Virus record (IMG/VR): IMGVR_UViG_3300033121_002012
Location: 2,069 to 66,068 of that record
Reading direction: 5' to 3' (one strand)
DNA length: 64,000 nucleotides
From: a virus
Shown: positions 42,930 through 60,559 of the stretch, piece after piece
Numbering within the stretch: the stretch's first letter is position 1
Layout of the letters: every line of letters starts with the position of its first letter
Position numbers and translations under genes: made by a program
Notes under the pieces: model-generated
Seen by the model: the letters and a program-made list of their open reading frames with translations, nothing else
What the model was told of the DNA's origin: nothing
The model's database searches: none

Positions 42930-42945
42930 GCCTGTAAGAACGCAA

Positions 42946-43185: not shown

Positions 43186-43354
43186 ACGCTTTCACCGTCG
43201 CACACAACTGCCTGATTTGCTCCTGCTGGATCGCAGTCAACTGCATATACTCGCTGACCGTTTCCACCAGCGCTACGAGCACTTTGCTTCGGTGATGTAG
43301 CGCGGCTGCTTTTAGCTGGGTGACCGCAATTTCTTTTTCCAGTTTTGCATCCAT
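43121..43354 (-). CDS. Small coiled-coil hypothetical protein
   Basis: Start at ATG 43354 (MDAKLEKEIA) after the minus-strand GTTCT. Confidence 0.45.
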   Translation of the reverse strand: MDAKLEKEIAVTQLKAAALHHRSKVLVALVETVSEYMQLTAIQQEQIRQLCATVKAYEEKSVEPVGGTVQSTAPAAS

Positions 43355-43373
43355 TTGGTTCTCAGAACTGAAT

Positions 43374-44921: not shown

Positions 44922-44948
44922 CTCAAAAACTCCGTTCTCTACCTCGCA

Positions 44949-46175
44949 ATGATGCCGACCAATTCGCAATGGCTGATCGTTACCGTGAAGGAACCGGTCA
45001 TGTTTCACCAGACTGCCGACGAAACGTGGCTGCTCAATCCCAACCGGCGCTACGTTTTCAACGCCAACCGGCTGGAGCCGATCCAACAGTTCATCGACAC
45101 CACGTCCGAATTGGACGGTGCCTCCCAGTATATCCGGTTGACTGCCGGGCGCGATCTTTCAGGAGCCAAGGTGCTCGTGGAACGCAGCCGGGAGCGCGGC
45201 ATCGGTGATCTGCTTTTTCTCACCGGGCCGCTGAGCTTTCTACACCATGTCAGCGGAGGCCGGGTGGAGATCGACTTCATGGCGTTTGCAGATCGCGGAG
45301 TGGTGCTGACCCACTCCCCGTTGATCCACAACCACTGCGTCAAGTGCGGGCCGCTGGAGTACGACCACCTGAAGATGTACAACTATAGCTGGCTCGTAAA
45401 CACCGTCACGGAGCAGGACTGCGAAGGTGACCAGTTGAATGTATACGATGCCTTGTTCCAACAACTCGGCTACAACCCCAGCGACATTGACGCCCGCTGG
45501 AAACGACCGACCGCTACCTTGGTCGCGGACGATTTCCGCAATCTCGAACAGCTTTACAAGCACGTCTGGGACGCCCGCAAAATCGACCTGCGCCATACCG
45601 GCTATTACGTCGTGGCTCCGTTTGCCAACGCCACCCTGCGCAGCCTGAACTACGGGCGCTGGTTGGAAATCATCAAAGCTCTCAGCACCCGCCGCCCCGT
45701 CATGGTGGTGGGAAATTCTTCACTGCGCCTCCCCGACATGGACATGAGCGCCGGTGAATTCAGCCAGCATGTGGCCAATACCGGCGGCGGGGTGTTTAAT
45801 GCGGTTGACAGCACCACCATCCGGGTGCTGATGGCTCTCATCGCCCGCAGCACCGGTCTGATCTGTCTGGACAGCGCCCCGCTCTACATGGCGCAGGCGG
45901 TCAACACACCCGCCATCAGCATTTGGGGCACCCACGCGCCGGGCGTGCGCATCGGCTACGACAAAAACTACATGGATTTGGCCATCTGGCGCGAAGACGC
46001 GTGCAAGTTCACACCCTGTTTTGCCTTCGGAAAATTTCCCGTCAACAAGTGTCCCTCGGGCATCCGTCAAACGGCTTGCGAAGTTACCAGCGCAGTTTCC
46101 GTGGATGACGTTCTAAAGAGGGTGGACATGATTGAGAGCGCCAACCCGGTGGTCAATAAATTCGCCGCCAAATGA
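44949..46175 (+). CDS. GT9 (ADP-heptose transferase-like) glycosyltransferase
   Basis: RGIGDLLF, APFANATLRS, CLDSAPLYMAQAVNTPAISIWG, C-terminal CxPC..C..C. Confidence 0.8.
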   Translation: MMPTNSQWLIVTVKEPVMFHQTADETWLLNPNRRYVFNANRLEPIQQFIDTTSELDGASQYIRLTAGRDLSGAKVLVERSRERGIGDLLFLTGPLSFLHHVSGGRVEIDFMAFADRGVVLTHSPLIHNHCVKCGPLEYDHLKMYNYSWLVNTVTEQDCEGDQLNVYDALFQQLGYNPSDIDARWKRPTATLVADDFRNLEQLYKHVWDARKIDLRHTGYYVVAPFANATLRSLNYGRWLEIIKALSTRRPVMVVGNSSLRLPDMDMSAGEFSQHVANTGGGVFNAVDSTTIRVLMALIARSTGLICLDSAPLYMAQAVNTPAISIWGTHAPGVRIGYDKNYMDLAIWREDACKFTPCFAFGKFPVNKCPSGIRQTACEVTSAVSVDDVLKRVDMIESANPVVNKFAAK

Positions 46176-46639
46176 AAGAAATCGTACCCAACCTGAAATC
46201 GTTTACGGTCGGCACCGAAACGCTCGATCTGAACTACCTGCTGAATGCCCCGTACGAGGACATCGGAGAAGCAGCGGAAAAAATTCCCGCCGCCATCGGC
46301 TGGCTTGGTTACCACCGGGGTCTGGCGCTGGAGCGCCTGATTGTTTCCGAGCAGGTGTGGAAGAAGGTGGAAGCCCAGCAGTATTTCCGTTTGAAGAATG
46401 GCGGCTTTACCGCCGAAGGTTTGGGCGACAAGCCCACCGAAGAAGCTTTGAAGAAGGCGATCCTGTTGACCCCGGAGGTCACAGCCGCCTGCGACGATTA
46501 TGCCAAACGCAAGCGTCACGCTGAATGGCTCAGCGCCTCCATCGACGCCTTGCAGGCCAAACTGGAACTGGTTCGATCCAGCGAGGCAACCCGGCGTATG
46601 GAACACGAACCTGACCGAAACCGCAGAACTGTTGTATGA
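46172..46639 (+). CDS. UvsY-like recombination mediator
   Basis: Helical protein KPTEEALKKAIL...IDALQAK directly upstream of SSB and RecA. Confidence 0.6.
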   Translation: MKEIVPNLKSFTVGTETLDLNYLLNAPYEDIGEAAEKIPAAIGWLGYHRGLALERLIVSEQVWKKVEAQQYFRLKNGGFTAEGLGDKPTEEALKKAILLTPEVTAACDDYAKRKRHAEWLSASIDALQAKLELVRSSEATRRMEHEPDRNRRTVV

Positions 46640-48216
46640 GCATCGACCCCAAAATCCTAAAGCGTATGCAGGGAGAAGATACCTTCCTGCAATCCCAAAC
46701 ACGCGGCTCACGCCGTGTCAAACTCAACCGTGGTCAGAACTGGATCGTCCGGTTCCTGCCCGCCCAGCTTGGCCCCGACGGGATGTTTTTCGCCCGCATC
46801 GCCCGCCACTGGCTGAACAAACTGCCCATCGTCTGCCCGCGCAACACAGCGGCGGATTACGGCGGCATTCCTGACTGCGACTGCCCGGTCTGCGATCTGG
46901 CAGAAGAACTGAACGAGAGCGCCGATCAGGTCATCAGCAAGTTCGGCTACAGTGCCCGCTCCAACCCCCAGTTTCTCACTTACTGCATCGTCTGGGAAAA
47001 GGATGGCATCCAGCAGCCCATGTCGGAAGTCATCAACCCTTACGAATTCTGGCACTACCGCAGCACGTGGGAAGAACTCAAAGGCTTCTACATTGCCGGT
47101 GGCCGTCGCTGCCCGGACAGTGTTCTCGACTACAAGCTGGGCAACGATTTCAGCGTCAGCAAAACCGTCAAGGGGATGCGTCTGGACAAACTGGATTCGT
47201 CGCCGATTTTCGACAAGGACGAACCCAAATACGCCGAATGGATCAAGAAGATTGAGGCGGCCCTGCGCACGCCCAAGGTCGTCATTCCCACCCACGAACA
47301 ACTGCAAGTTTTCGCGGCCAAGGTACAGGAAGCCGCCAACCGTGGCGGCGCTGCCGAAGATGAACCACGGCGTGGTCGTCGCCAACCGGATGCGGAATCG
47401 GAAGATGAAGATTCTCGTCCCCGGCGGCGTGCGCCAGTCGACGAAGAACCACAACCCCGGCGGCGTGCTCCGGTAGAGGGCGAAGATGACGGTGATCTTG
47501 GCCCGGTTCGTCCGAAAACACGGCGTCCCGAAGCTGACGCTCGTCCCGAGGATGAGTATGACGCACCGCGTCGGCGTGCCCCGGTTGAAACTGAAGCCGA
47601 AGACCCGCAACCGCGCAGGCGTGCGCCCGTCGAGGAAGACCCGCAGCCACGCAGACGTGCTCCAGTTGAAGCTGAAGCTGAAGAACCACCAGCACCCCGG
47701 CGACGACCGGTAGAAGCGGAGGAAGAACCGCAACCCCGGCGGCGCACGGCTCCCGTTGAACCGGACGAAGAACCGGCACCCCGCCGCCGCGCAGCAGCCC
47801 CAGTCGACGAAGACCCGCAACCCCGGCGGCGCACGGCTCCTGCCGCTGAAGCGGAAGCTGAGCCTGAACCTCGGACACGCTCTCGCCGCGAAGAACCTGA
47901 GCCAGTCACCGGTGAAGGTGACGGCGAACCCGTGGCGGAAAATGATCCTGAACCGGTCGCCACCAACACCCGGCTGCCTGCTACTCAGCGCCGGGCACTG
48001 GAACCTACCGCTCGGCGCACAGCGGCTCCCAAAGAAGCTGCCGGTTCGCCTCAAGGTGACGCGGAAGAAGATGATCCGCTGCCGGAAGATGACACCGATC
48101 CCGCACCACCGGCTCCCAAGGTGGACGCTGAAGATGCCCCGCCGCCGGTTGCCCGCAAGGGCAGCCAAGCCGGTGACATCAAAGACCGGCTCAAGAAACT
48201 CGGTCGTGAAGCTTGA
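46636..48216 (+). CDS. gp32-like ssDNA-binding protein with long repetitive C-terminal tail
   Basis: IVRFLP, HW...CP...DCPVC, GNDF; about 290-aa E/P/R-rich tail. Confidence 0.8.
   Translation: MSIDPKILKRMQGEDTFLQSQTRGSRRVKLNRGQNWIVRFLPAQLGPDGMFFARIARHWLNKLPIVCPRNTAADYGGIPDCDCPVCDLAEELNESADQVISKFGYSARSNPQFLTYCIVWEKDGIQQPMSEVINPYEFWHYRSTWEELKGFYIAGGRRCPDSVLDYKLGNDFSVSKTVKGMRLDKLDSSPIFDKDEPKYAEWIKKIEAALRTPKVVIPTHEQLQVFAAKVQEAANRGGAAEDEPRRGRRQPDAESEDEDSRPRRRAPVDEEPQPRRRAPVEGEDDGDLGPVRPKTRRPEADARPEDEYDAPRRRAPVETEAEDPQPRRRAPVEEDPQPRRRAPVEAEAEEPPAPRRRPVEAEEEPQPRRRTAPVEPDEEPAPRRRAAAPVDEDPQPRRRTAPAAEAEAEPEPRTRSRREEPEPVTGEGDGEPVAENDPEPVATNTRLPATQRRALEPTARRTAAPKEAAGSPQGDAEEDDPLPEDDTDPAPPAPKVDAEDAPPPVARKGSQAGDIKDRLKKLGREA
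47360..47900 (+). repeat. Degenerate tandem coding repeat (EEPQPRRRAPV)
   Basis: About 10 copies of GAAGAmCCrCAACCCCGGCGGCGy-like units. Confidence 0.8.
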
Positions 48217-48218
48217 TT

Positions 48219-49571
48219 ATGGCTGCCAAAAAGAAAGAGGTCGACGAGAACGAGGGCCTGATGACCGAACTCCGGCGTATCGCTCCCAAGGGGGAAGACG
48301 CGGGTAGCTGGGAAATCTCTCGGACGACTGAACTGGTGCTGTCGGAAGTGAAGTACGTGCTGACGACCGGCATCGAAGCCTTCGATGACATCGCCGGTGG
48401 CGTCCCCTTTGGGCGCATGGGCGAACTGTATGGGCTGGAAAGCTGCGGCAAGACGGCTATGGCCATCCGCTGCGCGGCCCGCGCCATGAAAAAGCACGTC
48501 TGCGAAGTGATCCACAACCCAGACGACTCCATCAGCTACAAGCCGCTGCCGCCGGACAAGTGCAAAGTGGTGGTGGTCTACATCGACAACGAGCAATCCC
48601 TTGACGACGACATGAAACTGGTCGTCGACGGGGAAAAGCTGGACGTGGTGGGCTGCCGTTTCGACACCACGGACGACGTGTTCAAAGCCATCGACGGGGC
48701 CATCAACTTTCAGGAAAAGCGACTGGAGCAGGAGGAAGAAGACGGCATCAAGCGTTTCATGCTGATCGTGGTCGACACGATTGCAAGCACGTCCACCAAG
48801 CAGGAACTCGATCAAAAATGGGGCACGCAGGATTTCCCGCGCCAGCCCCAGCAGATCAGCAAGGCCCTGCGCCAGCTTGTCCGGCGCGTCAACCGGTTCG
48901 GGGTGGCCATCCTGTTCACCAATCAGGTGCGCATCAAGTTCCAGCAGGGTCAGGCTCAAGGAGGCAAACAGACGTTCTCCATTCAAGCGGACGACTACAC
49001 GTCCCCCGGCGGCATGGCGCTGCGCTTCTACACATCGCACCGCGTGTTCATGTACTCGTTCGCCCAGAAGTACAAGCTCATCCCGGACGGCAAATTTGCC
49101 GCCGGGTTACTGGTCGGTTTCCACACCAAAAAGAATCGTCTGCGACCGCCACTGCGCGATGGGCGCATGGTGCTGCTGTTCGACAAGCATCAAGGCGGCC
49201 TCAACAACGTGTTCAGCCTGCTGGAGACGATGGTGTTCCTCGGCTTCATCGACGTGGCCGCTGAATCCAAGCACACGGGCTACACCCTGCGCTTCAAGGC
49301 AAACAACATCATTCCGACGACGTTCTCACCTGCCAAGGTGGAAACCTCGCTGGAGGAAGACGAAGCGCTGCCCCGCCGTGGTAGCAGCCGCAAAGACCCC
49401 GGTTTTCAAACCCGGTCAGAGTGGCCGCAATTCTACGCAGCCCACAAGGCCGACATCGAAAAGCTCTGGGCAGCAGCGGTGGTTTTTGCGATGGGCACCG
49501 AAGGCTTGGATGGCGGCGTTCAAGTTGAGGAAGACTACACCCCTGCCGTGACGGAAGGAGACGATGATTAA
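48219..49571 (+). CDS. recA: RecA/UvsX recombinase
   Basis: TGIEAFD..GGVPFGRMGELYGLESCGKT, YIDNE, IVVDT, FTNQVR, SPGGMALRFY. Confidence 0.92.
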   Translation: MAAKKKEVDENEGLMTELRRIAPKGEDAGSWEISRTTELVLSEVKYVLTTGIEAFDDIAGGVPFGRMGELYGLESCGKTAMAIRCAARAMKKHVCEVIHNPDDSISYKPLPPDKCKVVVVYIDNEQSLDDDMKLVVDGEKLDVVGCRFDTTDDVFKAIDGAINFQEKRLEQEEEDGIKRFMLIVVDTIASTSTKQELDQKWGTQDFPRQPQQISKALRQLVRRVNRFGVAILFTNQVRIKFQQGQAQGGKQTFSIQADDYTSPGGMALRFYTSHRVFMYSFAQKYKLIPDGKFAAGLLVGFHTKKNRLRPPLRDGRMVLLFDKHQGGLNNVFSLLETMVFLGFIDVAAESKHTGYTLRFKANNIIPTTFSPAKVETSLEEDEALPRRGSSRKDPGFQTRSEWPQFYAAHKADIEKLWAAAVVFAMGTEGLDGGVQVEEDYTPAVTEGDDD

Positions 49572-50324
49572 ATGGCCAAAATCCACATTGAATACAGCGC
49601 GGAACGGGAACTGGACGATGAACTGCAAGTGGTCATCGACAACAATCCGGCCTTCACACCCCTGAACGATGAAGTCAAAGTGCGGGCAGTGTTTGTCATC
49701 CGCATGGACGGCGATCAGGTCAGCAAACCCGGCAAGGAGGCGGTGACGCTAAAGAAAGTGCCACCGGAAATGGCGGTCTTTTACAAGACACCGATCAAAT
49801 TCATCCTCGTGGTCGACCACCACTACTGGCTGGAAGCCCAACCCCGGCAAAAACACGCCGCCCTCGACCGGGCTTTGAGCCGGATCGCTTTGGAAAAGGA
49901 TGAAGCGGGTGTTTACAAACCCAAAATCCGCAAGTGGGATTTGCAGGATAACGTCGACAACATCCAGCGTTATGGCGTGACCACCGAAGCACAGGTGCGC
50001 TTCGTGGAAGCGGCCAAGATGGTGCCGATGCTAACCCGGATGGTGGAAGGTGATCTGCAAAAACGCGCCGCGCAAAAAGCGCGGACACCGCCCGAGGCTG
50101 ACGCCCCGCCCGAAACTCCCAAAGCCAAGTCCGCAGATAAACCAAACCTGACGGCTGCTGTTGCTGCTGCTGCTGCTGCTAAACCGGCGGCCAAATCGCC
50201 GACCAAACCCAAAACCGCTCCGGCTCCCGCCGAGGAAACCGATGCGGAACCTGAACCCACACGTCCGGCCCGGCGACCGCCGCCTGATCCGGTGCCCGCC
50301 GAAGACGACGTTGAACCTGATTGA
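49572..50324 (+). CDS. Phage metallopeptidase-like domain (catalytic motif lost) with Ala/Pro/Lys tail
   Basis: FILVVD...W...QKHAALDRALSR...IRKWDLQD...IQRYG; RALSR where HELxH is expected. Confidence 0.5.
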   Translation: MAKIHIEYSAERELDDELQVVIDNNPAFTPLNDEVKVRAVFVIRMDGDQVSKPGKEAVTLKKVPPEMAVFYKTPIKFILVVDHHYWLEAQPRQKHAALDRALSRIALEKDEAGVYKPKIRKWDLQDNVDNIQRYGVTTEAQVRFVEAAKMVPMLTRMVEGDLQKRAAQKARTPPEADAPPETPKAKSADKPNLTAAVAAAAAAKPAAKSPTKPKTAPAPAEETDAEPEPTRPARRPPPDPVPAEDDVEPD

Positions 50325-50410
50325 CCGCTGTGAATAATTTGTGAGCCGAAAGATTTGTTTTTTCTTGTTTAATTTTCTTTCGGTGTTTACATCAACCTAC
50401 CTAGTTCGCT

Positions 50411-51205
50411 ATGAGTTTAATTCCCAAACGCACCAGCTTCATGCGATATGCTCGCGTGTTTGAAATCCTGAAAGGGGACAACGCACTCAGCAAGAAGCTC
50501 AGCAAGAATACGACTGCGGTATGCCGTCCTGACCAGACCAGTCAGGATTTTCCCGTCGAAGTCGTACACGTCACCGACACCATCCACGCCAGCGGTAAAG
50601 ATGCCTACACGCTGTCCAAGCTCGAAGTGATCCGCACCGCGCATCACCTGCTCGTGGAAAATCCACAGCCCATCCCGACACCTGAGAAAGCCGAGGCCAA
50701 GGCACCTGAGAAAGCCGAGGCCAAGGCACCAGAGGTCAAAACCGCCAAACCCAAAGCGGCCCGCAAACCGGCCCCCAAAGCAACGGCCAAGCCTGCGCCC
50801 AAAGCAACGGCCAAACCCGCGCCAAAACCGGCACCCAAGGCCGCCCCCAAAGCAGCCCGTAAACCGGCCAAGGGGGATTCGCCCCCAAAAACAGAAGCAA
50901 CCGCTGAGCCTAGCCCGGCAGCGGTTGCTGAGAAGCCGACGGGCGACGTTCCTAAAAGCGACCGGGTAAGCTCTGTTCCAGAGTTTATCCGTCCCCTCAT
51001 ACCCAACGTGGTTGCTGTGGCAATGATGGTCAACAGCCAAGCCGTAATCACCTTGTGCGAACCGCTTATTCAGGCGGAGAGCAAGGGCGATACCGGCGCT
51101 ATCGGAGCCAAAGCGGTTGTGGACAAAGCCAACGAACTTATCAACCTGATCTATCGTCTGACCGTACTACCTGATGCCAAAGCGGAACCCAGCACCACAG
51201 GCTGA
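50411..51205 (+). CDS. Protein with histone H1-like Lys/Ala/Pro repeats
   Basis: PEKAEAKA x2 (24-bp direct repeat) and KPAPKATA repeats. Confidence 0.55.
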   Translation: MSLIPKRTSFMRYARVFEILKGDNALSKKLSKNTTAVCRPDQTSQDFPVEVVHVTDTIHASGKDAYTLSKLEVIRTAHHLLVENPQPIPTPEKAEAKAPEKAEAKAPEVKTAKPKAARKPAPKATAKPAPKATAKPAPKPAPKAAPKAARKPAKGDSPPKTEATAEPSPAAVAEKPTGDVPKSDRVSSVPEFIRPLIPNVVAVAMMVNSQAVITLCEPLIQAESKGDTGAIGAKAVVDKANELINLIYRLTVLPDAKAEPSTTG

Positions 51206-52184
51206 CGGCGAACACATCTTTCCCGCGAGCCAGCTAACGCCTCTTGCCATCCAGTGGAAACAACTCAGTTCCGCTGGACGGCACAAAGAGGCGATGCTCG
51301 TTTTGGAAAAGATCGTGGTCGGCTCCACGGCCATGTTCGAGCGGCTGGCCCAGTTTGAAGACTTCCACTACACGGTCGACCTGCCTATTCTTGTCAGCGC
51401 CGCGCAGGAAAAAGTCATCAAGTGGCTGCTGAAATGGCAGCCCAAGAAGGGGCGTTTGTTCTCGTGGTTCTCGAAGTGCGCCAAGAACGCCTTCCGCTCA
51501 GAACTGGTCAAGGTCAACCAGTATCGCAAACGCTACCACGTCACCGGCGACAGTCTGGAAAAGTTCTACGGGGCCGAGGATCACGATGTCGACAAACACG
51601 ACGCGGCTGCCGAACTGCGCATCAAACTCGATGAACTGACCTGCCGCTGGGGTGATCCGCAGGAAATCGGAGCCATCCGCTACCTGACGCTCTGCCTGAT
51701 CGACGATGAGCACGACAAGCAGGCGGCCATCCGCAGCGCCGCTTACGCCTTCGGCATCAGCTTTGAACTCTCCAAATTTTTCTACAACTGGGCCATCGTC
51801 AACCTCCGGCACGCTTTCTACGAAAAAGTTTACATCCCCTTCACCGAGTACGATCTGATGCTCGCGGCAGAGAGCTATAGCTTCTGGCCGGAGTTTGTAA
51901 ACATCGTGGGCTTCGAGAACGCGAAAAGATGCAGCGGCCTGCTCGGGGGCCAGCGTGTAAAATTTCCCACGCTCCAGTACTTTGCAAAATTACGCGAGAG
52001 CCACCAGATTGCCCGTGACATCGAGCGCAGCGACCTTGATCCTGACGCCGTAGCCGAGGTTGGTCGCAAGTACAAAAAGACCGCCCGCACCGCACAGGAA
52101 CTTTTCACCGACATGGTTGAACAAAACGACCCCAAGCGTTATGGCGAGCACAGCATTTTCGACGAAGATACCGCTGACGAATGA
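51174..52184 (+). CDS. Sigma-factor-like protein (region 2) with Mor-like C-terminal domain
   Basis: AQEKVIKWLLKWQPKKGRLFSWFSKCAKNAF resembles sigma region 2.2-2.4; IVGFENAKRCSGLLGGQRVKFP resembles Mor. Confidence 0.65.
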   Translation: MPKRNPAPQADGEHIFPASQLTPLAIQWKQLSSAGRHKEAMLVLEKIVVGSTAMFERLAQFEDFHYTVDLPILVSAAQEKVIKWLLKWQPKKGRLFSWFSKCAKNAFRSELVKVNQYRKRYHVTGDSLEKFYGAEDHDVDKHDAAAELRIKLDELTCRWGDPQEIGAIRYLTLCLIDDEHDKQAAIRSAAYAFGISFELSKFFYNWAIVNLRHAFYEKVYIPFTEYDLMLAAESYSFWPEFVNIVGFENAKRCSGLLGGQRVKFPTLQYFAKLRESHQIARDIERSDLDPDAVAEVGRKYKKTARTAQELFTDMVEQNDPKRYGEHSIFDEDTADE

Positions 52185-53655
52185 GCTTGTAGCCCTGCTG
52201 CGCCCCAAGCGCCACCGGCTCTTTCTCCTGTTCACCGATCCCAAGCTGCGTCCACCCGTGCTGGACGAGATGATGCCCGACTTGCAGCGGGTGATCGCCA
52301 GCGTGGCACAGGATTACTGCGACACGACCACCCCGCACCTGCATTTCGACGAATTGATGGGGGAAGGTAATCTCAAACTGGCCGAGATCATCACCAAGGG
52401 TATTCTCATCAGCGACAAGTGCCCCACCCGGCATTCCTTCTTTGCCTTCTTCAAGACGGCTGTAAACAATCACACGCGCAGCCGGGTGCAGAAATACCGC
52501 TTCACGGAAAAGCGCACCGGCCAGAAACCGCCGCCCCGTGAACAGCGCTTCGTGCCCAACGCCGCGCCCGCCGAGGATGAAGCACCCGCGCCGGAGTACC
52601 ACAAAAACGTCGAACTCAGCCTCGACGATCCTGATTCCGGGCTACAGGTGCCTGACCAGCACCATCACGGCGAAGGTGACGACCGGGAAATTGACTGGGG
52701 CTTCAATCCGACCGCCGCCGAGTATGCTTATCTCATGACCCCGGTGGAAAAGATCGTGTTCCACGAAATGATTATGCCCAGCGCTCATGCCCGGTGCTAC
52801 GCCGAGCAGGATGCCATGCGCAAGGCCAATCATGCCAAGGTCAACATCAAGATCAAATTCTGCCACATGGCGGAAGCCATCGGTTTAGCCCCGGAACTTT
52901 TTGAAGAAGCCGTTCTATCCATACGGAACAAGATCAAATTTTACCGTATGTCAACCGACGAGACTCGCGAAAAAGAAGCACGGGAGAATGCCATCATTGC
53001 CCAGTTGAAAGAAGTCTTTGGGCTGCATATTCCACCCGACATCGACCGTATGGTAATCCGCCGGATGCTGACGATGGCCGCACGGGATCAGTTCGACAAA
53101 CTGAATCCCCAGATCAGTGAACTGCTGACGGAAATCGGGGCCAAGGTGCCGCGCACCATCGGCAACGAAAAACTGGCGTGCTACGGCGTGCTCTTTCAAC
53201 GCAATTGTAGACAATGCAATACCTGCGATCTCCGGCATAGCTGCGCCGTGGAAGCCGCCAGCCTCGGCCTGACCAAGATGACGTTCAGCCCCAAGCTGCT
53301 GGGTTCCCGGCAAATTCGGGTGCCTGCCTTCCTGCCGCGCCCGGCCACGGAAATCACCCAACAGATCAGCAGCGCCGATGAAGCGGAAATCATCAGCCAT
53401 CTGGACGAAACTTTTGAGCGGGCCGTGCGGGGTGGCCAGACCTACTATTACCACCGGGTCGGCAGCGACAAAAAGCGCCGCTTCCTGTTTTGCATCGAGC
53501 GCAAGGCTCCCCTTCGTCTGCGCCTGTGCAATCCGAGCGAGGAATTGAAAAAACGCCTGACGGGCAAACAGAAGACATGGTGTGCGCCGGAAACGGCTCC
53601 CCTATCGGAAATCATCGCGTTAATCGAGCAGCATGGCCGGGAAACTTTCACCTGA
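52141..53655 (+). CDS. Sigma70-family-like protein with C-terminal Cys cluster
   Basis: FDELMGEGNLKLAEII...FFAFFKTAVNN (region 2), MTPVEKIVF...MAEAIGL (region 4-like), CYG...CRQCNTCDLRHSC; start uncertain. Confidence 0.65.
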   Translation: MASTAFSTKIPLTNELVALLRPKRHRLFLLFTDPKLRPPVLDEMMPDLQRVIASVAQDYCDTTTPHLHFDELMGEGNLKLAEIITKGILISDKCPTRHSFFAFFKTAVNNHTRSRVQKYRFTEKRTGQKPPPREQRFVPNAAPAEDEAPAPEYHKNVELSLDDPDSGLQVPDQHHHGEGDDREIDWGFNPTAAEYAYLMTPVEKIVFHEMIMPSAHARCYAEQDAMRKANHAKVNIKIKFCHMAEAIGLAPELFEEAVLSIRNKIKFYRMSTDETREKEARENAIIAQLKEVFGLHIPPDIDRMVIRRMLTMAARDQFDKLNPQISELLTEIGAKVPRTIGNEKLACYGVLFQRNCRQCNTCDLRHSCAVEAASLGLTKMTFSPKLLGSRQIRVPAFLPRPATEITQQISSADEAEIISHLDETFERAVRGGQTYYYHRVGSDKKRRFLFCIERKAPLRLRLCNPSEELKKRLTGKQKTWCAPETAPLSEIIALIEQHGRETFT

Positions 53656-53658
53656 TTT

Positions 53659-54030
53659 ATGGCTGACCCCTTACCCGCCCAATCTCCGGCTCCCAACGTG
53701 ATCGCACCGGAAAAAGCCATGACCCGGTTTGAAGCCCAGCGCAAACTCGGCCTCTTTGCACCCCACGATTACGTCATGCTGTCCTTGATCGTGTTGATCT
53801 GGGTGACGCTGGGATTCTGGAAACTGTTCGGCACCCCGACCGCGTTGCAACTGGTGGCACTGGGACTTGTAAACATTGTGCTGACCCAGTTCTGGATGAT
53901 CGTCTTGGTTTATCGCTGCATGGTGTTCACGCTTGATCTCCACGCAGATGTCGCCCTGATGCCGGAAGCAGCGGCCCGGATCGTGGTCGGTTACTGGGAA
54001 GGCCGCCGCGCTACTCCCACTCCAAAATGA
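53659..54030 (+). CDS. Two-TM membrane protein
   Basis: Two hydrophobic segments; holin-like size but no adjacent endolysin. Confidence 0.55.
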   Translation: MADPLPAQSPAPNVIAPEKAMTRFEAQRKLGLFAPHDYVMLSLIVLIWVTLGFWKLFGTPTALQLVALGLVNIVLTQFWMIVLVYRCMVFTLDLHADVALMPEAAARIVVGYWEGRRATPTPK

Positions 54031-54323
54031 ACAACTTTACCCGCAACAAACTCGCGCACGACCTGCATCAACGGCTGGCCATCCCAGTGGATCGCGCCAA
54101 AGGCATCGTCGATCAAACCTTGGATGCGCTCAGCAACGCCTTAGCCGAAGGCAAAAAAGTGGAATTTCGTGGCTTCGGTATCTTCGAGGTCGTGCAGCGC
54201 AAACCCAAGGTGGGCCGTAATCCCCGCCACCCGGAAGCGGGTCAATACCAGATTCCCGCCCGGCGGATGGTGCGCTTTCGCATCGGCAAACAGTTGTTCG
54301 CGCTGCTCAATCCTAATGAATAG
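54027..54323 (+). CDS. HU/IHF-family DNA-binding protein
   Basis: VEFRGFGIFEVVQRKPKVGRNP...IPARRMVRFRIGK. Confidence 0.92.
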   Translation: MNNFTRNKLAHDLHQRLAIPVDRAKGIVDQTLDALSNALAEGKKVEFRGFGIFEVVQRKPKVGRNPRHPEAGQYQIPARRMVRFRIGKQLFALLNPNE

Positions 54324-54344
54324 CAACCACGACAAGCTCACCCC

Positions 54345-54974
54345 ATGACTGCCGCGCCTACACGCTCCGACCTCGCCAATGATGCCCAACGCGGCAGTCA
54401 TTGCGGGTGCAGCGCCTTGTTCGGCATCATCTACTGTGATCCAGCATGGTCTTACAAAGACAAGTGCCATGCCGGGGAACGTGGTGCGGGCTACAAATAC
54501 ACGACGACCAGCACGGAAGAAATGGCGCAACTGCCAGTCATCAAAATCGCCGCGAAAGACTGTGCGCTGTTCATGTGGGCAACGATGCCGATGCTGCCTG
54601 ACGCTCTCGCGCTGATGAAGTCATGGGGCTTCCAATACAAGACCGCCGCCTTCGTGTGGGTCAAGAGCAACAAAAAATCTGACACTGACTTCTTCGGTAT
54701 GGGCAACTGGACTCGCGCCAACGCGGAAATCTGCCTGCTCGGAATCCGAGGAAAACCAAAACGGGTGTCTGCCGCCGTTCGGCAGGTAATCCGTCGCCCG
54801 ATAATGCGCCATAGCGAGAAGCCGCCAGAAGTGCGGGAACGCATCGTGACGCTGATGGGTGACATCCCCCGCGTGGAGCTATTCGCTCGCGTGAAAACCG
54901 AAGGCTGGTCGGTGTGGGGCAACGAAGTAACCAGCGACGTGTCAATGATGCCGAACGACCCGGATCAGCGATGA
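54345..54974 (+). CDS. MT-A70 family N6-adenine methyltransferase
   Basis: IIYCDPAWSY, LFMWAT, WGFQYKT, GMGNWTRANAEICL, HSEKP, VELFAR, WGNE. Confidence 0.9.
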   Translation: MTAAPTRSDLANDAQRGSHCGCSALFGIIYCDPAWSYKDKCHAGERGAGYKYTTTSTEEMAQLPVIKIAAKDCALFMWATMPMLPDALALMKSWGFQYKTAAFVWVKSNKKSDTDFFGMGNWTRANAEICLLGIRGKPKRVSAAVRQVIRRPIMRHSEKPPEVRERIVTLMGDIPRVELFARVKTEGWSVWGNEVTSDVSMMPNDPDQR

Positions 54975-54996
54975 GCGCCACTACGCTAGTTAGCGT

Positions 54997-55368
54997 ATGA
55001 ATGACGAAAGTTGGATTGGTGTTGATCTCGATGGCACCTTGGCCCACGACACCGGCTGGCGCGGCCCCGAGCACATCGGGCCGCCCATCCCCGCCATGCT
55101 GGAACGAGTGAAACACTGGCTCAACGACGGCAAGAAGGTAAAAATTTTCACCGCCCGCGCCACGGAACCGCAGCACATCCCGCCGATCCGTGAATGGCTG
55201 CGCCAGCATGGACTGCCCGAACTGGAAGTAACCAACGTGAAGGATTACGCGTGTATCGAATTCTGGGATGATCGCGCCGTCGAAGTCATACCAAACACCG
55301 GACGGCCCGCTAATCCCCTGCGGCGGCTGGTGGCTGCTGCCCAGCCAGTAGCGGAGTCGGCTCCCTAG
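54997..55368 (+). CDS. HAD-superfamily phosphatase-like protein
   Basis: IGVDLDGTLA, IFTAR, WDDRA. Confidence 0.8.
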   Translation: MNDESWIGVDLDGTLAHDTGWRGPEHIGPPIPAMLERVKHWLNDGKKVKIFTARATEPQHIPPIREWLRQHGLPELEVTNVKDYACIEFWDDRAVEVIPNTGRPANPLRRLVAAAQPVAESAP

Positions 55369-55604
55369 ACACCAAAACGTTTCCTGACCGCAGTATTGAA
55401 AGCTGCAAGATCGCTTTCCGTGGGAGCGCACACGTCGTGATAAGAAACAATCCCGGTGCCTTTCTCATTTTGCACATGGCAGACAAGGCCCTTCCAGCCA
55501 TCGTGGCGCATCCGGTTATTTGCACGTGAAATCGACCGGCAGCGCAAAACCTGTCCGGTCGATTTTAGTTTAACCCAGCAGGGTGCTTTGAACTTTGTGT
55601 TCAT
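55365..55604 (-). CDS. Hypothetical protein
   Basis: ORF coupled to the upstream gene. Confidence 0.45.
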   Translation of the reverse strand: MNTKFKAPCWVKLKSTGQVLRCRSISRANNRMRHDGWKGLVCHVQNEKGTGIVSYHDVCAPTESDLAAFNTAVRKRFGV

Positions 55605-57037
55605 GCGCCAACTTCAGCCGCCTGCTTGGCAGCTTCGGCAGCCACAAAATCATCCTGCTTGGAGGCACCCCAATTCAATCCGAACTTACCGGCACACACC
55701 GGGCCGTAGCCCACGTCGGTTGAGCGGTCATCCGTCAAATTGCGACCGCAGAAGCAGCAGCGACCCGTCAGCTTGCCGTACTTCGCCGCCACCGTCTCTG
55801 GGTCAGCCGCAAACTGGAGCAACTGACGCTCAACCGTCGGCGGACATTCCCGCACCGGGAAGAAACGACCTTCCGGTGTGATCTTGCCGTAGTAGCGGTC
55901 GCCGCTCTTGACGTAAATGCTGCCTGCGTTTTTGGAAGCCGCCCCCGCCAAGGAGAGATGCAGATGGCTGCTGGCGTCATCCGCCAGCCGGATGGCCGGG
56001 TGCTTCAGCTTGGACTCGGTGGCCGCTGTAAACATTGCGAAGATGCGAGGCATACCGTTGACGTTCAACTGCGCAATCTTGGGCTGCGGCAGGGAACGGC
56101 GGTAGGCTTCAATGATGTAGGCGGCGATGCCGCAGAGCCGGGGTTCAATGGCTTCGGCGCGGGCGCAGGCGAGCAGGTTATGCTCAAAGTCACCCAGCGT
56201 GCGGTTCGCGGATTTGAAGCTGGTGATTACCATGTCGCGGATGGCGTCAGCAGTCATGTCTTCCGGGTCAGCCAAGACCGGACTGTACTTTCGGAGCACC
56301 CACTGCCGGGCCTCGTAAGCCAGCGCGGTCGCTTCCGGGGTGATTTCGTAGGGCTGTCCCAAAACTCCGTTCATTGCCATCTGCGCCTTGTCCGACGTGG
56401 AGTTGCCGTGACCCGCTGCCGAAACCATCTTGCGCGTAATGTAGCGCCCGTCTTTCAGCACCACTGCCGCCACATGGCCCAAGAAGGTGTCGAGATCAAT
56501 CCGGTAAATGTGCCGGACGTTGGCGCTGCCTTTCAGCCATTCAATGCGGGTGGCGGCGCTGCAAACATCAAAAGCGTTGAACAGGTGCTCGGACGCCTTG
56601 GTCATCTGGTGCGGCGACGTGCCGAGAAAATCTTCAAGGCAGGAGGAACCGACCTGCATGACGCGGCCATCGCGTGTGTGCTGAACGATGTAGGTGTCGT
56701 TGCGCATCCGGTTGGTCTTGCAGTGGGAACAATAAGCCGGAGCATCCCGGTATTCGGCAGGCACCGTATAACCGGGCTTGGAGCGCGTGATGTTACCTTC
56801 TTCCGTGTGAACAATGGTGGCGACAAATTCCCAGCCGTTGCAGGTAGGCGTATCGCCGGTGACTTCGAGATTGATGTAGCGGACAAGCTTGGTGGCATCC
56901 GTGGCACTGGGATGATCCACGTGACCGGTGATGGTGAAGGTGACCGGCTTGGCCCCGATCCGCAGGAGCTTGGCGTTGAGGCGGGTCAGTTTCTCCGTCA
57001 GGGTTTTGAAATTGGCTTCGTAGATTTCGTAATTCAT
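55601..57037 (-). CDS. Early protein with C-terminal DUF6011-like Zn finger
   Basis: CSHC...VGSSCL; C-terminal CCFCGRNLTD..S..VGYGPVCA; start ATG 57037. Confidence 0.7.
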   Translation of the reverse strand: MNYEIYEANFKTLTEKLTRLNAKLLRIGAKPVTFTITGHVDHPSATDATKLVRYINLEVTGDTPTCNGWEFVATIVHTEEGNITRSKPGYTVPAEYRDAPAYCSHCKTNRMRNDTYIVQHTRDGRVMQVGSSCLEDFLGTSPHQMTKASEHLFNAFDVCSAATRIEWLKGSANVRHIYRIDLDTFLGHVAAVVLKDGRYITRKMVSAAGHGNSTSDKAQMAMNGVLGQPYEITPEATALAYEARQWVLRKYSPVLADPEDMTADAIRDMVITSFKSANRTLGDFEHNLLACARAEAIEPRLCGIAAYIIEAYRRSLPQPKIAQLNVNGMPRIFAMFTAATESKLKHPAIRLADDASSHLHLSLAGAASKNAGSIYVKSGDRYYGKITPEGRFFPVRECPPTVERQLLQFAADPETVAAKYGKLTGRCCFCGRNLTDDRSTDVGYGPVCAGKFGLNWGASKQDDFVAAEAAKQAAEVGA

Positions 57038-57043
57038 AACGGC

Positions 57044-57086
57044 ACTGTAAACAAACGTGACTATGCTGTCAACATTATATTTTAAT
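57044..57086 (-). promoter_or_regulatory. Sigma70-like early promoter
   Basis: Minus strand TTGACA-17nt-TACAGT with AT-rich UP; ATG 6 nt downstream. Confidence 0.75.
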
Positions 57087-57165: not shown

Positions 57166-57699
57166 TTAAGAGGGGAAGCGATTTTTCTGGTAAGGCTTAT
57201 CTTCGTAACCCAGCGCCGCGCTGGCTTTGCTCCAGAAACCGGGCAGTGGTTTCCAGAACAGGGCGATCTCCACGCGCCAGTCACCGGGATCATTCTCGAA
57301 GTCGCCGTAGTCCGTGTGCAAATCGTAATCGTCGTGCTGGGGCGTCAAACGGCTGAGTTCACAGCGAAACTCCACCTTGGCCCGGCGGCAGGCCGCCCGG
57401 AACATGTTCATGATCCGTCCCCGCAACTGCAAAGTATCCTCCGGGCTGGGCGCTACCCGTGCTCCGGCGGCCAGCCACTCGGAACGATAAAGCCAGTCCA
57501 CAAAACCCGCCTCAACATCCCAGAGGTCTTCCGCGCTATTGGTGATCCGAATGTTCCGCCAGCCTTTCTCCACCAGTTCGTCCCGCAACACTCCCGCCAG
57601 CAGCCGACCGGGATCACCGCCGGTGTATTCCGCTAAGGGCGCATCCTCCGGGGGAAGGTCGTTCTCCAACAAATTGTTTACAACAGACGGCGCATTCAT
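57166..57699 (-). CDS. Putative internal head protein
   Basis: MNAPSVVNNLLEND; coupled to the neck gene. Confidence 0.55.
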   Translation of the reverse strand: MNAPSVVNNLLENDLPPEDAPLAEYTGGDPGRLLAGVLRDELVEKGWRNIRITNSAEDLWDVEAGFVDWLYRSEWLAAGARVAPSPEDTLQLRGRIMNMFRAACRRAKVEFRCELSRLTPQHDDYDLHTDYGDFENDPGDWRVEIALFWKPLPGFWSKASAALGYEDKPYQKNRFPS

Positions 57700-58460
57700 C
57701 AGTCGATCATGGCGGGAGTATGCCGCTGCATTCCCTTCAACTGCTCCATGAGTTTGTCGACTTCCGCCTGCGCCTGCTCCCGCTTTTGCTGGTCAAGCTG
57801 GAGGTTCTGCGCGGGGCCGGGGATCGCGCCGCTGTATTTCATCCAGAGTTCCCCTAGTTGCAGCTTCGAGGTTGCCAGCGCATAGCGCTTCACCCAGTCC
57901 GATCCCGTGTAGTCCAGCTTCTCCGTGCGCTCGTGCGGCCAGTAAGCGAACACTCCCGCCTGATAGCGCTCAATGGGATTGTGGATGTAGAGCGCCCGTT
58001 CGCTATCGTCGTAATACCAGTCCGGCTTGATCGACGTGACCCGCTGCCACGTTTTACGCCAGCGCAGGAAAGTATCGTACTCATCCAGACCGGTGCGAAA
58101 CAGGGGCGCAGGATTGATGAGGTTACCGTAGAAGATTTCCGTGGGCACGGGGTTGGGTTCCACGAAGTCGATCTGCACAATGCCCAGCCCGACGTTGACT
58201 CCCTGCAAATAGCGAAACTGTCCCCGTGTCAGAATAAGATTGCCGACCTTGATGTTCGGCACCCACTGAGAGTAAAGCCCCAACGCATCCTGAATGTGAT
58301 CGAGAATCTGCTGGTTCGTCAGTTCCACGTTCCAGACAGGGCCACCTAACTGACGAATGACGTAGTTTTTTAGCTGGTCAACCGTGTAGCCGACCAAGGG
58401 CAGCGTATCCGGGCTGTTGGCGCTGGTTGCTACGGGCGTGCTGGCGTTGCTTGTGACCAT
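57699..58460 (-). CDS. Neck protein (T4 gp13-like)
   Basis: LKNYVIRQLGGPVWNVELT..QI, WVKRYALA..K..LG...KY..IPGP; GTAGTTA upstream. Confidence 0.88.
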   Translation of the reverse strand: MVTSNASTPVATSANSPDTLPLVGYTVDQLKNYVIRQLGGPVWNVELTNQQILDHIQDALGLYSQWVPNIKVGNLILTRGQFRYLQGVNVGLGIVQIDFVEPNPVPTEIFYGNLINPAPLFRTGLDEYDTFLRWRKTWQRVTSIKPDWYYDDSERALYIHNPIERYQAGVFAYWPHERTEKLDYTGSDWVKRYALATSKLQLGELWMKYSGAIPGPAQNLQLDQQKREQAQAEVDKLMEQLKGMQRHTPAMID

Positions 58461-58475
58461 GCCCTAACTACCGCC

Positions 58476-59567
58476 TCACTGCGTGGCCGCCGGATAGGGA
58501 GCCATGATGGCTTTTACCCGCTCAGGATGTTTGGCCTCCGCGTGCTTGAGCAATTGCGACCGGAATTTGTGGGGTGCCGAGCACGCCATGCAAACAAACT
58601 GATTACTGGGCGTCATCGGCTTCAACGGTGGAGCCGGTGATCGCGGGGCCGGTCGCGGTGCCGGAGCCGCCGCTGGTTCAACTTCGTCAACTTCCGGCTC
58701 TGGAAGCACGGCTGCGGCTGACGCCTGCGGCGAATCTTCCTGCATGGTGACTTCCATCTCAGGTTCATTACTCTCGGTTAACGGCTCCGGCTCGTCTTCC
58801 GGTGCCGGTGCGGTTTCCACGATAGGCGTTCCGGCCACGATGGGACTGTTCGCAGGAGTGTTTACAACGGCGGTGTTGGCGAATGGATTAGCCGACGCGT
58901 CTTCGGGTGGTGGGGTGGCGGCTCCTTGATTCAAACCGGCCACCAACTGGGTGCGAGCGGAGCGGTTGGGATCGTCCTTGGGCAGCGTCAACATTTCCTT
59001 CGGCAACGGCGGAGCAGGCTTGTTCATACCGGGATCAGTGGAATAGCGCATCTTGGGAATGCCGCTAGGGGGCAGCCCGGTCGTGTCATTCACGCCGTAA
59101 TCTTCCGGCACTTCGCGCACTTTGCGTACGAAGCCGCGCTTGCGGGCTTCCTCCATCGACATGGGCTTGACGGATTCCGTGGCGCTGGCAACCACAGCGG
59201 CAGGCAATGCGGACTGCGCGGACGACACAGCCGGTTGGGGCTGGGTCAGCACAGGCTGGCGGCGACCCTGTTCATCGCGTGTAAAACTGGTGATCGCCCG
59301 CACCGGATTGCCCGAGGCAGTGGCGGTCACCGGCGCAGTGACCTCCGGGATCACAATGATCGGCACTTCTTTTTCCGAAAGCTCCCGGTGCAACTGCTTG
59401 TTGTTTGCGTAGACCTCAAAGTAAGGATCGTTGATCTTACGCCCGGCACGATCCAGCAGATATTTGCCCGGCTCCAGCGTCAAGGTGATGTTGAGGCGGG
59501 AGATGACCAATTGAATGGGCCAGCGGTTGCCGTTGTAATAGCCAACTACCTTCGTCGTATTGCTCAT
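58476..59567 (-). CDS. Pro-rich protein with C-terminal C2H2 zinc finger
   Basis: FVCMACSAPHKFRSQLLKHAEAKH; start ATG 59567 after GTTCT. Confidence 0.65.
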   Translation of the reverse strand: MSNTTKVVGYYNGNRWPIQLVISRLNITLTLEPGKYLLDRAGRKINDPYFEVYANNKQLHRELSEKEVPIIVIPEVTAPVTATASGNPVRAITSFTRDEQGRRQPVLTQPQPAVSSAQSALPAAVVASATESVKPMSMEEARKRGFVRKVREVPEDYGVNDTTGLPPSGIPKMRYSTDPGMNKPAPPLPKEMLTLPKDDPNRSARTQLVAGLNQGAATPPPEDASANPFANTAVVNTPANSPIVAGTPIVETAPAPEDEPEPLTESNEPEMEVTMQEDSPQASAAAVLPEPEVDEVEPAAAPAPRPAPRSPAPPLKPMTPSNQFVCMACSAPHKFRSQLLKHAEAKHPERVKAIMAPYPAATQ

Positions 59568-59568
59568 G

Positions 59569-59877
59569 TCATTTAAGAACAGGTTTTTGTGATTTGTCCG
59601 AAGAAATTTCCAGTGGTTCCAGTCGCCGGATAAAAACCGGTGTCGTGTCCCCCACCCACGCGCCAATAACGTTGAAGTCAAATTACTCCGCCGCCTCGTC
59701 CGGGGTGCAGCCACCTTTCACCAGCAAGTCGATGTATTTGTCGTAATCGTACGCCGCCACCACTGGCATTCCGAAACGGTTCGCCACGCCGATGAGTGCT
59801 GCGTCAAAACCATCACAAAACAGTGCTTCAGGATTTACCTCGGCTACCGCTACACGCATGGGATGATCGTTGGCCAC
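59569..59877 (-). pseudogene. Conserved small phage protein interrupted by one in-frame TAA
   Basis: ALFCDGFDAALIG...DEAAE*FDFNVIGAWVGDTTPVFI; the frame continues to TGA at 59569. Confidence 0.65.
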
Positions 59878-59910
59878 AAAATAAAGAACGGCAATCCCGA
59901 AGGACTGCCG
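59878..59910 (-). terminator. Rho-independent terminator with cUUCGg tetraloop
   Basis: CGGCAGTCC-TTCG-GGATTGCCG-TTCTTTATTTT. Confidence 0.8.
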
Positions 59911-60530: not shown

Positions 60531-60559
60531 ACTGTATACAATCCAGTAGCTACCGTCAA
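60531..60559 (-). promoter_or_regulatory. Sigma70-like early promoter
   Basis: TTGACG-17nt-TACAGT; GTG 8 nt downstream. Confidence 0.7.

Follow-up and report, generated by a model that had tools for sequence, protein, structure and literature searches.

IMG/VR virus record IMGVR_UViG_3300033121_002012 consists of one linear contig (66,068 bp), whose bases 2069-66068 form the 64,000-nucleotide (nt) stretch analyzed here (the window). Within it, two adjoining open reading frames on the plus strand, ORF1 (51174-52184) and ORF2 (52141-53655), are predicted to encode divergent proteins of the sigma-70 family. The explanation that we favor, with somewhat better than even confidence, is that a jumbo phage redirects the core RNA polymerase (RNAP) of its host by means of these two tandem proteins, which would read motif promoters of leaderless mRNAs.

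Four genomes were compared: this record (G000) and three relatives that carry the same sigma pair (G001, G004, and G005). The relatives measure 211 kb (rated 93% complete), 238 kb (96%), and 230 kb (100%, with terminal repeats); since the present record is rated 29% complete, the window is a fragment (~30%, roughly a third) of the genome of an uncultivated jumbo phage and not a whole genome. The GC content of the relatives is 52-57%, and ORF1 is 48-73% identical to its counterparts in them.

In the proposed scheme, tandem phage sigma-70-family proteins would redirect the host core enzyme to three promoter classes that share one register, ~12 to 5 nt before start codons, and the first nucleotide of a transcript would coincide with the start codon or lie only a few bases from it. 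A host-type TTGAC-N17-TACAGT element would serve early genes; aaa..C.GTTCTt (class M) would serve genes of replication, repair, and nucleotide metabolism; and GTAGTTA, or GTAnTTA in the relatives (class L), would serve virion genes. Genes without a motif would mostly be translated via coupling to the gene upstream. We infer that the motifs serve as promoters and give rise to leaderless mRNAs, and that the proteins reading them are ORF1, with a sigma-2 domain, a helix-turn-helix (HTH) like that of Mor and C, and a hydrophobic-acidic tail, and ORF2, with sigma-2, an acidic linker, sigma-4, a four-cysteine (Cys4) cluster, and a YjbR-like domain.

Domain structure of the tandem genes

ORF1 codes for 336 residues, in which a sigma-2 domain resembling those of gp55 and of extracytoplasmic function (ECF) sigma factors (residues 17-120; 51222-51533) is followed by middle helices and then by a Mor/C-like HTH at the C terminus (residues 261-322; 51954-52139). 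By title, every one of the 50 Foldseek matches listed for ORF1 is an RNAP-sigma entry, but the E values are no better than 0.03. The structural match to sigma-2 covers the whole domain with a root-mean-square deviation of ~2 Å and ranks first of 48,161 chains; chain F of 7d7d we take to be gp55 from the entry title alone. By structure, ORF1 is predicted to have a sigma-70-family fold.

Profile searches with ORF1 against Pfam and PHROG returned Mor (E = 0.017), phrog_836, and phrog_234 (E = 0.1), all below threshold. The Mor match (PF08765) scored 15.6 bits against a cut-off of 24.9, which leaves ORF1 outside the Mor/C family as Pfam delimits it. Among 42 relatives of ORF1, Sigma70_r2 was matched in 15 (best E = 5e-4) and Mor in 20, again always below cut-off. 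When phrog_234, the gp55 “late sigma” family, was run over whole genomes, ORF1 was its sole match, in three of the four genomes (E = 9e-4, 8e-5, and 2e-4). Alignment by hhalign to the single sequence of Escherichia coli RpoE placed ORF1 residues 69-112 on RpoE residues 45-87, the right region, with E = 0.24; the same comparison made with ORF2 gave a meaningless result and was set aside. No fewer than 309 proteins resemble ORF1 at E ≤ 0.001, and the ESM Atlas provided sigma clusters as leads. The C terminus of the ORF1 family (window 52120-52184) carries a conserved P-x-R-Y-G-E-H-x-I-F/Y followed by acidic residues. In sequence, this tail resembles the hydrophobic-acidic clamp-binding tail of gp55 described in PMC2988020.

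ORF2 may start at TTG 52060 (531 residues) or at ATG 52141 (504 residues) and ends at 53655. The ATG is the likely start because the N terminus M-x-S/N-T-A-F-S-T-K is common among homologues and the stored form has 504 residues. From that start, the protein is predicted to be an ECF-like two-domain sigma factor with a long C-terminal extension: a sigma-2-like domain (residues 40-122; 52258-52506), a disordered acidic linker of ~60 residues, a sigma-4-like domain (residues 189-271; 52705-52953), further helices, the Cys4 cluster (C347, C359, C362, and C368; 53179-53244), and an α/β domain like YjbR/DUF419 (residues 412-504; 53374-53655). In the predicted structure (mean residue confidence, pLDDT, 77.7; global fold score, pTM, 0.38), the sigma-4 HTH lies C-terminal to sigma-2 in the canonical order. 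Each of the 48 aligned homologues retains all four cysteines, and the family, which counts 251 representatives after clustering at 50% identity, has a conserved L-I-E-Q-H-x-x-E-T-F at its C terminus.

Sequence comparison tied ORF2 to no named family. Sigma70_r2 matched none of 48 ORF2 relatives, and Pfam placed no sigma model over the matched part of ten short divergent relatives of the ORF2 N-terminal region. A profile search of 1.84 billion representatives gave close family members for all of the best 150 matches (E ≤ 1e-32), and a search for shorter homologues yielded three fragments and no bridge to named families. The BFVD fold search returned nothing at E ≤ 0.001, its named matches being a mixture of MotA, phage sigma factors, and unrelated proteins. 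When a complex of ORF2 residues 30-140 with the clamp-helix region of E. coli β′ (residues 220-350) was predicted, the score was 0.49, compared with 0.00 for the best of three controls, which counts as “weak support.” Of 80 solved complexes, 58 reached the mark applied to such scores, as did 2 of 110 mismatched pairs; only 7 of the 80, and both passing mismatches, did so with a score at or below 0.60. Contacts agreed between runs to at least 56%, and partner pLDDT was at least 64. The score may merely reflect likeness, because sigma-2/β′ complexes have already been solved, and E. coli β′ is a stand-in for the protein of the host.

The N-terminal domains of ORF1 and ORF2 appear homologous to each other (hhalign, 82% probability, E = 1e-5 over 84 columns), and six other domain pairs gave 1.5% or less; the 82% was obtained with domain-cut, broader alignments, whereas a whole-length run gave 1%. 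A search by tblastn of 50,697 cultured-phage records with ORF1 and ORF2 produced no match. In sequence searches of the PDB, ORF1 found nothing and ORF2 found one chance match, YnzC (E = 0.02). The pair is single-copy, adjoining, and in the same gene order in four of four genomes, and profiles of the ORF1 family, the ORF2 family, PF04542, and phrog_234 revealed no other sigma-like gene in these genomes, with the exception of a weak match in G005 (E = 0.066). The models agree with the sequence-only reading of this DNA, which had proposed two tandem sigma-like genes here.

We consider it very improbable that the two proteins are not sigma factors at all but DNA-binding activators or anti-sigma-like regulators that reuse sigma-like helices, with ORF1 as a late activator of the Mor/C type. 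In Pfam and PHROG, ORF1 scores best with the Mor family, albeit below threshold. Against this, Mor and C lack a sigma-2 domain, whereas the top-ranking match of ORF1 spans all of that domain at ~2 Å; ORF2 presents sigma-2 and then sigma-4 in canonical order; and the profile searches of the four genomes found no alternative candidate for promoter recognition.

ORF2 overlaps ORF1 by 44 nt, and ORF1 overlaps its own upstream gene by 32 nt; given the 44-nt overlap, the two sigma genes are almost certainly co-transcribed. Both belong to a long plus-strand cluster downstream of the GTTCT site at 44934. An 86-nt gap at 50326-50410, before the gene that precedes ORF1, contains an inverted repeat, CCGAAAG...CTTTCGG, and then TTTACAT, which resembles the early −10 words of G004. 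This gap may hold an internal terminator and a weak early promoter for the sigma operon. In G005, TACAGT lies 8 nt ahead of the ORF1 start. A consensus scan of 43000-56000 for promoters and terminators gave counts near the shuffle level. As far as the gene layout indicates, ORF1 and ORF2 are probably made together, perhaps from early and middle promoters, in which case timing must come from something other than their order of synthesis.

Motifs ahead of start codons

GTAGTTA occurs 15 times in the window, 14 of them on the minus strand, compared with 1.28 ± 1.19 in 100 dinucleotide shuffles, none of which reached 15. In an unbiased k-mer test of the 25 nt upstream of 75 longest-ORF starts, it preceded 10 of the 75 (0.17 expected), and TAGTTA preceded 12 (0.20 expected). 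The gene caller was crude, in that longest ORFs were scored by codon usage, and some called starts lie too far upstream. The distance from the end of the motif to the start codon was 4 nt for four copies, 5 nt for one, 6 nt for three, 7 nt for two, and 27 nt for one, in keeping with the spacing of mostly 4-7 nt that had been noticed from the sequence alone; the copies at 20644, 24110, 33611, and 61672 adjoin no called start.

The same arrangement recurs in the three complete relatives, in all of which GTAGTTA and GTTCT top the lists of upstream k-mers. GTAGTTA was found within 25 nt of the start in 33 of 279, 12 of 274, and 7 of 322 genes, the expectation for the four genomes being 0.1-0.6, and the variants GTAATTA, GTATTTA, and TAGTTA were also among the enriched words. 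Total GTAGTTA counts in G004 and G005 were unenriched or depleted relative to a reversed-word control, so the signal there is purely positional. The interval between the end of GTAnTTA and the start codon is 4-9 nt, with a mode of 4. Both motifs are strand-specific. Alignment of 97 GTAnTTA and 96 GTTCT sites showed no −35-like signal, and GTAGTTA has no further conserved flank.

The copies with a nearby start are on the minus strand. Those at 4 nt precede the GTG of a 1057-residue gene that runs off the window start (motif 1599-1605), the GTG of gene 19079-20161 (20166-20172), the GTG of gene 41583-42023 (42028-42034), which heads a same-strand run ending with the prohead protease and major capsid genes, and the ATG of the head-tail adaptor gene 57699-58460 (58465-58471). 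A distance of 5 nt separates 26292-26298 from the ATG of the PDZ-protein gene (25141-26286). At 6 nt stand 14623-14629 (ATG of gene 14263-14616), 20519-20525 (ATG of gene 20252-20512), and 19076-19082 (GTG of the HNH gene, 18518-19069), the TAG of the last being the stop codon of the upstream gene. At 7 nt are 10944-10950, which lies in a 21-nt divergent intergenic region ahead of the ATG of gene 10076-10936, and 32113-32119 (ATG of gene 31698-32105). A further copy at 18970-18976 is 8 nt before an in-frame ATG within the HNH ORF. The HNH gene, which had earlier been placed behind GTTCT, in fact stands behind GTAGTTA, and it is located between two GTAGTTA copies and the sheath gene. In run X15, a variant skips 431 nt at 18516-18948 and has 14 other letters instead, so that most of the HNH gene is gone; this looks like the presence or absence of a mobile homing-endonuclease gene.

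The 14-mer GTAGTTAAGGCGTG, which joins the box, AAGGC, and a GTG start, appears three times in the window (1591-1605, 20158-20172, and 42020-42034). Near-cognate ATAGTTA (21422-21428), CTAGTTA (54986-54992), CTAGTTC (50401-50407), and TTAGTTC (61631-61637) are found 3-4 nt ahead of starts; they may belong to the two classes as weaker or hybrid forms.

GTTCT had likewise been proposed to precede genes of the phage, and this holds for its position though not for its abundance. Base composition predicts ~105 copies for the 66,068-bp record, which contains 118; for CCGTTCT the count is 6 (8.8 expected). By position, the word is clearly enriched, preceding 12 of the 75 starts within 25 nt (1.39 expected; p = 1.5e-8 over 757 5-mers) and 32, 22, and 22 genes in the relatives (1.4-5.7 expected for the four genomes). 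It ends mostly 6-10 nt before the start, with a tight range of 7-10 nt and a mode of 7, and 96 sites from the four genomes gave the extended consensus aaat.c.GTTCTt.

On the plus strand, GTTCT is found at 3721-3725 (7 nt before the GTG of gene 3733-4311), 5938-5942 (10 nt before the ATG of gene 5953-6591), and 26307-26311 (7 nt before the ATG of the SbcC gene, 26319-28268). Two further plus-strand copies lie within a shared 14-mer, AAAAACTCCGTTCT, which had been pointed out at 12393 and 44925 and is indeed followed in each case by 10 nt and ATG. The first (GTTCT at 12402-12406) precedes ATG 12417, the likely true start of a gene ending at 13187, and the second (44934-44938) precedes gene 44949-46175, near the head of the cluster that contains the sigma genes. 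Minus-strand copies are at 2442-2446 (9 nt before the ATG of the GroES-like gene, 1782-2432), 8928-8932 (6 nt before a GTG and 9 nt before an ATG of gene 8301-8921), 42937-42941 (7 nt before the GTG of the glycosyltransferase gene, 42027-42929), 59885-59889 (7 nt before the GTG of gene 59683-59877), and 61167-61171 (8 nt before the ATG of gene 60913-61158). The copy at 59576-59580, within CAAAAACCTGTTCTTA, is 8 nt before an internal ATG that would yield a 363-residue form of gene 58476-59714.

A host-type class also exists, although the form TTGAC-N16/17-TACAGT suggested for it has a single match in the window, at 32163, and the other sites emerged from a scan with N16-19 spacers, which located TACAGT at 32163 (plus), 57072 (minus), and 60559 (minus) and TACGAT at 31450 (plus). 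The individual elements are TTGAC-N17-TACGAT at 31450-31477 (plus; 6 nt before ATG 31484 of a 73-residue ORF), TTGACA-N16-TACAGT at 32163-32190 (plus; 47 nt before ATG 32238), TTGACA-N17-TACAGT at 57044-57072 (minus; 6 nt before ATG 57037 of a 478-residue ORF), and TTGACG-N17-TACAGT at 60531-60559 (minus; 8 nt before GTG 60522 of a 188-residue ORF). Three of the four (31450, 57072, and 60559) thus end 6-8 nt before a start codon. For TTGAC-N16-18-TAnnnT, a called start followed the hexamer by 6-10 nt in 3 of 7 sites in G000, 9 of 21 in G001, 7 of 25 in G004, and 2 of 20 in G005; in the relatives, host-type sites near starts are far above chance placement. GTTCTT, with its mode of 6 nt before the start, occupies the same register as the host-type −10, with GTAGTT(A) shifted toward the start by one or two bases.

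Gene classes, proposed leaderless layout, and tentative assignment of the motifs

The genes behind the two motifs differ in function. In the window, the named products of GTAGTTA genes are a PDZ protein, a head-tail adaptor, and an HNH endonuclease (10 proteins, 7 of them without a PHROG match), and those of GTTCT genes are SbcC, a GroES-like protein, and a glycosyltransferase (10 proteins, 5 without a match); of the gene names first assigned from the sequence alone, these six were borne out. Across the four genomes, 94 GTAnTTA genes gave matches to 24 PHROG families at E ≤ 1e-5, of which 14 are virion or assembly families (tail fiber, adaptor, baseplate wedge and hub, portal, sheath, chaperone, and virion structural proteins), the remainder being NUDIX, radical-SAM, HNH, kinase, isomerase, and unknown families. 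The 92 GTTCT genes gave matches to 51 families, and the 25 of these that were listed include no virion family: they comprise DNA polymerases, helicases, DnaB, SbcCD, RusA, methyltransferase, PurZ-like, GroES, glycosyltransferase, and endolysin. This sorting by function is the main reason for reading the motifs as temporal transcription signals rather than as ribosome-binding sites. One GTTCT-class gene of the relatives matches phrog_1211, an adenylosuccinate-synthetase-like family of the PurZ type (E = 1.6e-41), and by this likeness some members of the clade may modify adenine in their own DNA.

The position of the motifs relative to coding sequences suggests how mRNAs might begin. Genes that carry a motif follow gaps of 6-30 nt or head divergent units, and motif-less genes mostly overlap the gene upstream or follow it by 5 nt or less (24 of 38, 109 of 157, 108 of 169, and 144 of 209 in the four genomes). 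In G001, divergent units are headed by 23 of 55 class L genes and 17 of 34 class M genes, compared with 25 of 182 motif-less genes. Divergent pairs in the window are as close as 21, 20, and 32 nt (10937-10957, 21418-21437, and 26287-26318), the last being a GTAGTTA gene that faces away from a GTTCT gene, and gaps of 20-32 nt leave room solely for −10-type promoters. The close spacing between motif and start suggests leaderless mRNAs, and by sequence geometry alone a −10 element ~6-8 nt before the start, as expected of leaderless genes, is what is seen. The layout thus points to leaderless first genes with translational coupling downstream. Shine-Dalgarno (SD) words are absent from the enriched k-mers, and SD-like sequences precede 27 of 249 motif-less genes with gaps above 15 nt. 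Ahead of the major capsid gene lies a 42-nt leader that is rich in A and C and without an SD sequence (window 38037-38078), and motif-less genes with gaps are generally A-rich upstream. Scarce SD sequences and A-rich upstream regions hint at a host that initiates translation without SD pairing.

Some of the same observations could be accommodated if the motifs acted on RNA, as non-SD translation-initiation signals or as cleavage sites of a phage endoribonuclease that cuts polycistronic RNA shortly ahead of start codons, and the sigma-like proteins had other targets. A spacing of 4-10 nt is also the SD register, SD sequences are almost absent from the genome, several copies of the motifs lie 3-21 nt after a same-strand gene with two overlapping its stop codon, and strand specificity would be expected. 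We nevertheless regard this explanation as unlikely, for two signals sorted by gene function are expected of temporal transcription and would be unusual for ribosome binding. Moreover, the major capsid gene, the most highly expressed, has neither motif, host-type −10 hexamers with −35 boxes share the register, and the motifs are over-represented at the heads of divergent units, some of them 20-32 nt apart, where a promoter must lie.

Several points weigh against sigma-directed, leaderless transcription as we picture it. Neither ORF has a significant match in Pfam, NCBIfam, or PDB sequence searches, and the sigma identity of ORF2 derives from a predicted structure with moderate Z scores (7-8) and the pTM given above. 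ORF2 has a sigma-4 domain, yet neither motif class has a −35 element. With a spacing of 4 nt, a transcript start 6-7 nt past the motif would fall inside the start codon; GTG at +4, the commonest single arrangement (24 of 97 class L sites in the four genomes), is poorly used on leaderless mRNAs by many bacteria. The RNA-library contigs (four runs, 8001-28000) are short and of low depth, show no 5′ ends, and could reflect DNA carry-over. Non-structural genes (NUDIX, radical SAM, HNH, and PNK) occur in class L and an endolysin gene in class M, and no motif stands directly upstream of the genes for the major capsid protein, the prohead protease, and the sheath, which would be read through from upstream units. 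Neither β (PF00562) nor β′ (PF00623) of RNAP was matched by Pfam in any of the four genomes, so no phage RNAP is detectable by that route, but subunits of the phiKZ type are very divergent and Pfam could miss one. A search with PF00940 for a T7-type RNAP matched nothing anywhere, controls included, and is uninformative. Finally, overlapping sigma genes in one same-strand cluster make sequential synthesis unlikely, and the two proteins could act together. The three-tier cascade proposed in the sequence-only reading is affected accordingly: its separation of virion from replication and repair genes and its host-type class stand, and its temporal order is put in doubt by the overlap of the sigma genes and by the motif-less capsid, protease, and sheath genes.

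Which protein would read which motif is the weakest step, and our assignment of ORF1 to GTAGTTA and ORF2 to GTTCT is a guess; it follows the analogy with gp55 and its simple, −10-only box. There is perhaps a one-in-several chance that the motifs are promoters with a different pairing, in which both ORFs serve one class, or one is a true sigma factor and the other class depends on host sigma-70 remodeled in the manner of MotA and AsiA or on a factor encoded outside the 66-kb fragment. Joint action has precedents in T4 gp55 with gp33 and in SPO1 gp33 with gp34, and the overlap and conserved adjacency of the genes would be expected of subunits made together. About 70% of the genome lies outside this record, and the weak G005 match noted above, to Sigma70_r2, lies elsewhere in that genome. 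GTTCTT lines up precisely with positions −12 to −7, where a sigma-70 −10 hexamer would lie, and has an A-tract upstream; MotA is among the weak BFVD matches to ORF2 (probability ≤0.69). Set against these points, each ORF has its own complete sigma-2 domain, which partners of the gp33 type lack; two paralogous sigma-2 domains and two motif classes are both kept across the clade; and the profile searches described above found no other sigma-like gene.

Source phage and comparison with known regulators

Other genes of the window include those for a tail sheath, a gp23-type major head protein, a prohead protease, a UvsX/RecA-like recombinase, and an HU protein. The capsid protein is at most 29% identical to any cultured-phage counterpart. 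Near-identical DNA is present in activated-sludge and wastewater runs, and relatives of both ORF proteins are found on viral contigs of 33-238 kb. The lack of β and β′ matches fits a statement in PMC7824862 that jumbo phages with gp23-type capsids are without RNAP and encode sigma factors. Among 185,579 reference genomes, the only match was a partial copy of ORF1 on a 5.9-kb contig (L017) binned into a metagenome-assembled genome of Verrucomicrobiota; this could be a hint of the host or a binning artifact and is too thin to name a host.

The nearest comparison is with late transcription in T4, which involves gp55, the TATAAATA promoter, gp33, and gp45. The phrog_234 profile finds only ORF1, GTAGTTA resembles the T4 late promoter in being a single box of 7-8 bp without a −35 element, and a gp23-type capsid, UvsX, and a sheath are common to both phages. 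The conserved hydrophobic-acidic C-terminal tail of ORF1 likewise resembles the one that PMC2988020 describes for gp55. Unlike gp55, which is small and contains only sigma-2, ORF1 has middle helices and a fused C-terminal HTH, and PMC2988020 remarks that no fused late sigma factor of the gp55-gp33 type had come to light. The box also differs, being GTAGTTA rather than TATAAATA and abutting the start codon; words of the TATAAATA type were not among the top enriched upstream k-mers of the window or of the three relatives.

In phage SPO1, gp28 is the middle sigma factor and gp33 and gp34 form the late one; their promoters are bipartite, with −35 and −10 elements, and the mRNAs have leaders. As there, sigma-family proteins of the phage under study would displace the host sigma factor on the host core and read middle and late promoters. 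The SPO1 sigma genes are separately regulated, whereas the two described here overlap. ORF2 resembles ECF (group 4) sigma factors in having only sigma-2 and sigma-4, joined by a linker, before its Cys-rich region and extra domain, and GTT-type −10 cores are typical of some ECF sigma factors. It departs from them in that its family has no Pfam or NCBIfam sigma match, its linker of ~60 residues is acidic and disordered, and the motifs lack a −35; we know of no ECF factor with a YjbR-like C-terminal extension. The C-terminal HTH of ORF1 resembles Mor and C of phage Mu, but these are small dimeric activators of the sigma-70 holoenzyme without sigma-2. Leaderless middle and late transcripts occur in the Thermus phage phiYS40, and leaderless genes occur in mycobacteria. 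In both, as here, a −10-type element stands a few bases before the start, with phage classes that lack a −35. Their elements are read by host sigma-A, in contrast to the two non-TAnnnT boxes associated here with phage sigma genes.

Phage sigma factors and phage-specific promoters are textbook matter, and the known cases come from few cultured phages. What sets the present pair apart from T4 and SPO1 is that its families lie outside curated models, that ORF1 fuses sigma-2 to an HTH, that ORF2 has a Cys4/YjbR extension, and that the boxes abut start codons. A shallow literature search found no published description of GTAGTTA or GTTCT as promoters, the GTAGTTA matches listed being, by title, primer contexts. 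A broader proposition, which we advance only tentatively, is that a widespread clade (sludge, peat, and soil) runs almost its whole genome leaderless from −10-only promoters of three classes with two new sigma families, ORF1 being a natural fusion of a gp55-type sigma-2 with an HTH/flap-binding module and ORF2 an ECF-like sigma factor that senses metal or redox state through its Cys4 cluster and times the switch from middle to late expression.

The two ORFs represent two large protein families unseen by curated models, both with predicted sigma folds, and the tandem pair is conserved in jumbo phages without a detectable RNAP. A possible use of the sigma pair, together with its 7-bp boxes, is as a small set of orthogonal parts for transcription. 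The leaderless layout would be a clue to the host, namely one that translates leaderless, non-SD mRNAs. For related metagenomic phages, the motifs would allow start codons, operon heads, and temporal class to be predicted from sequence.

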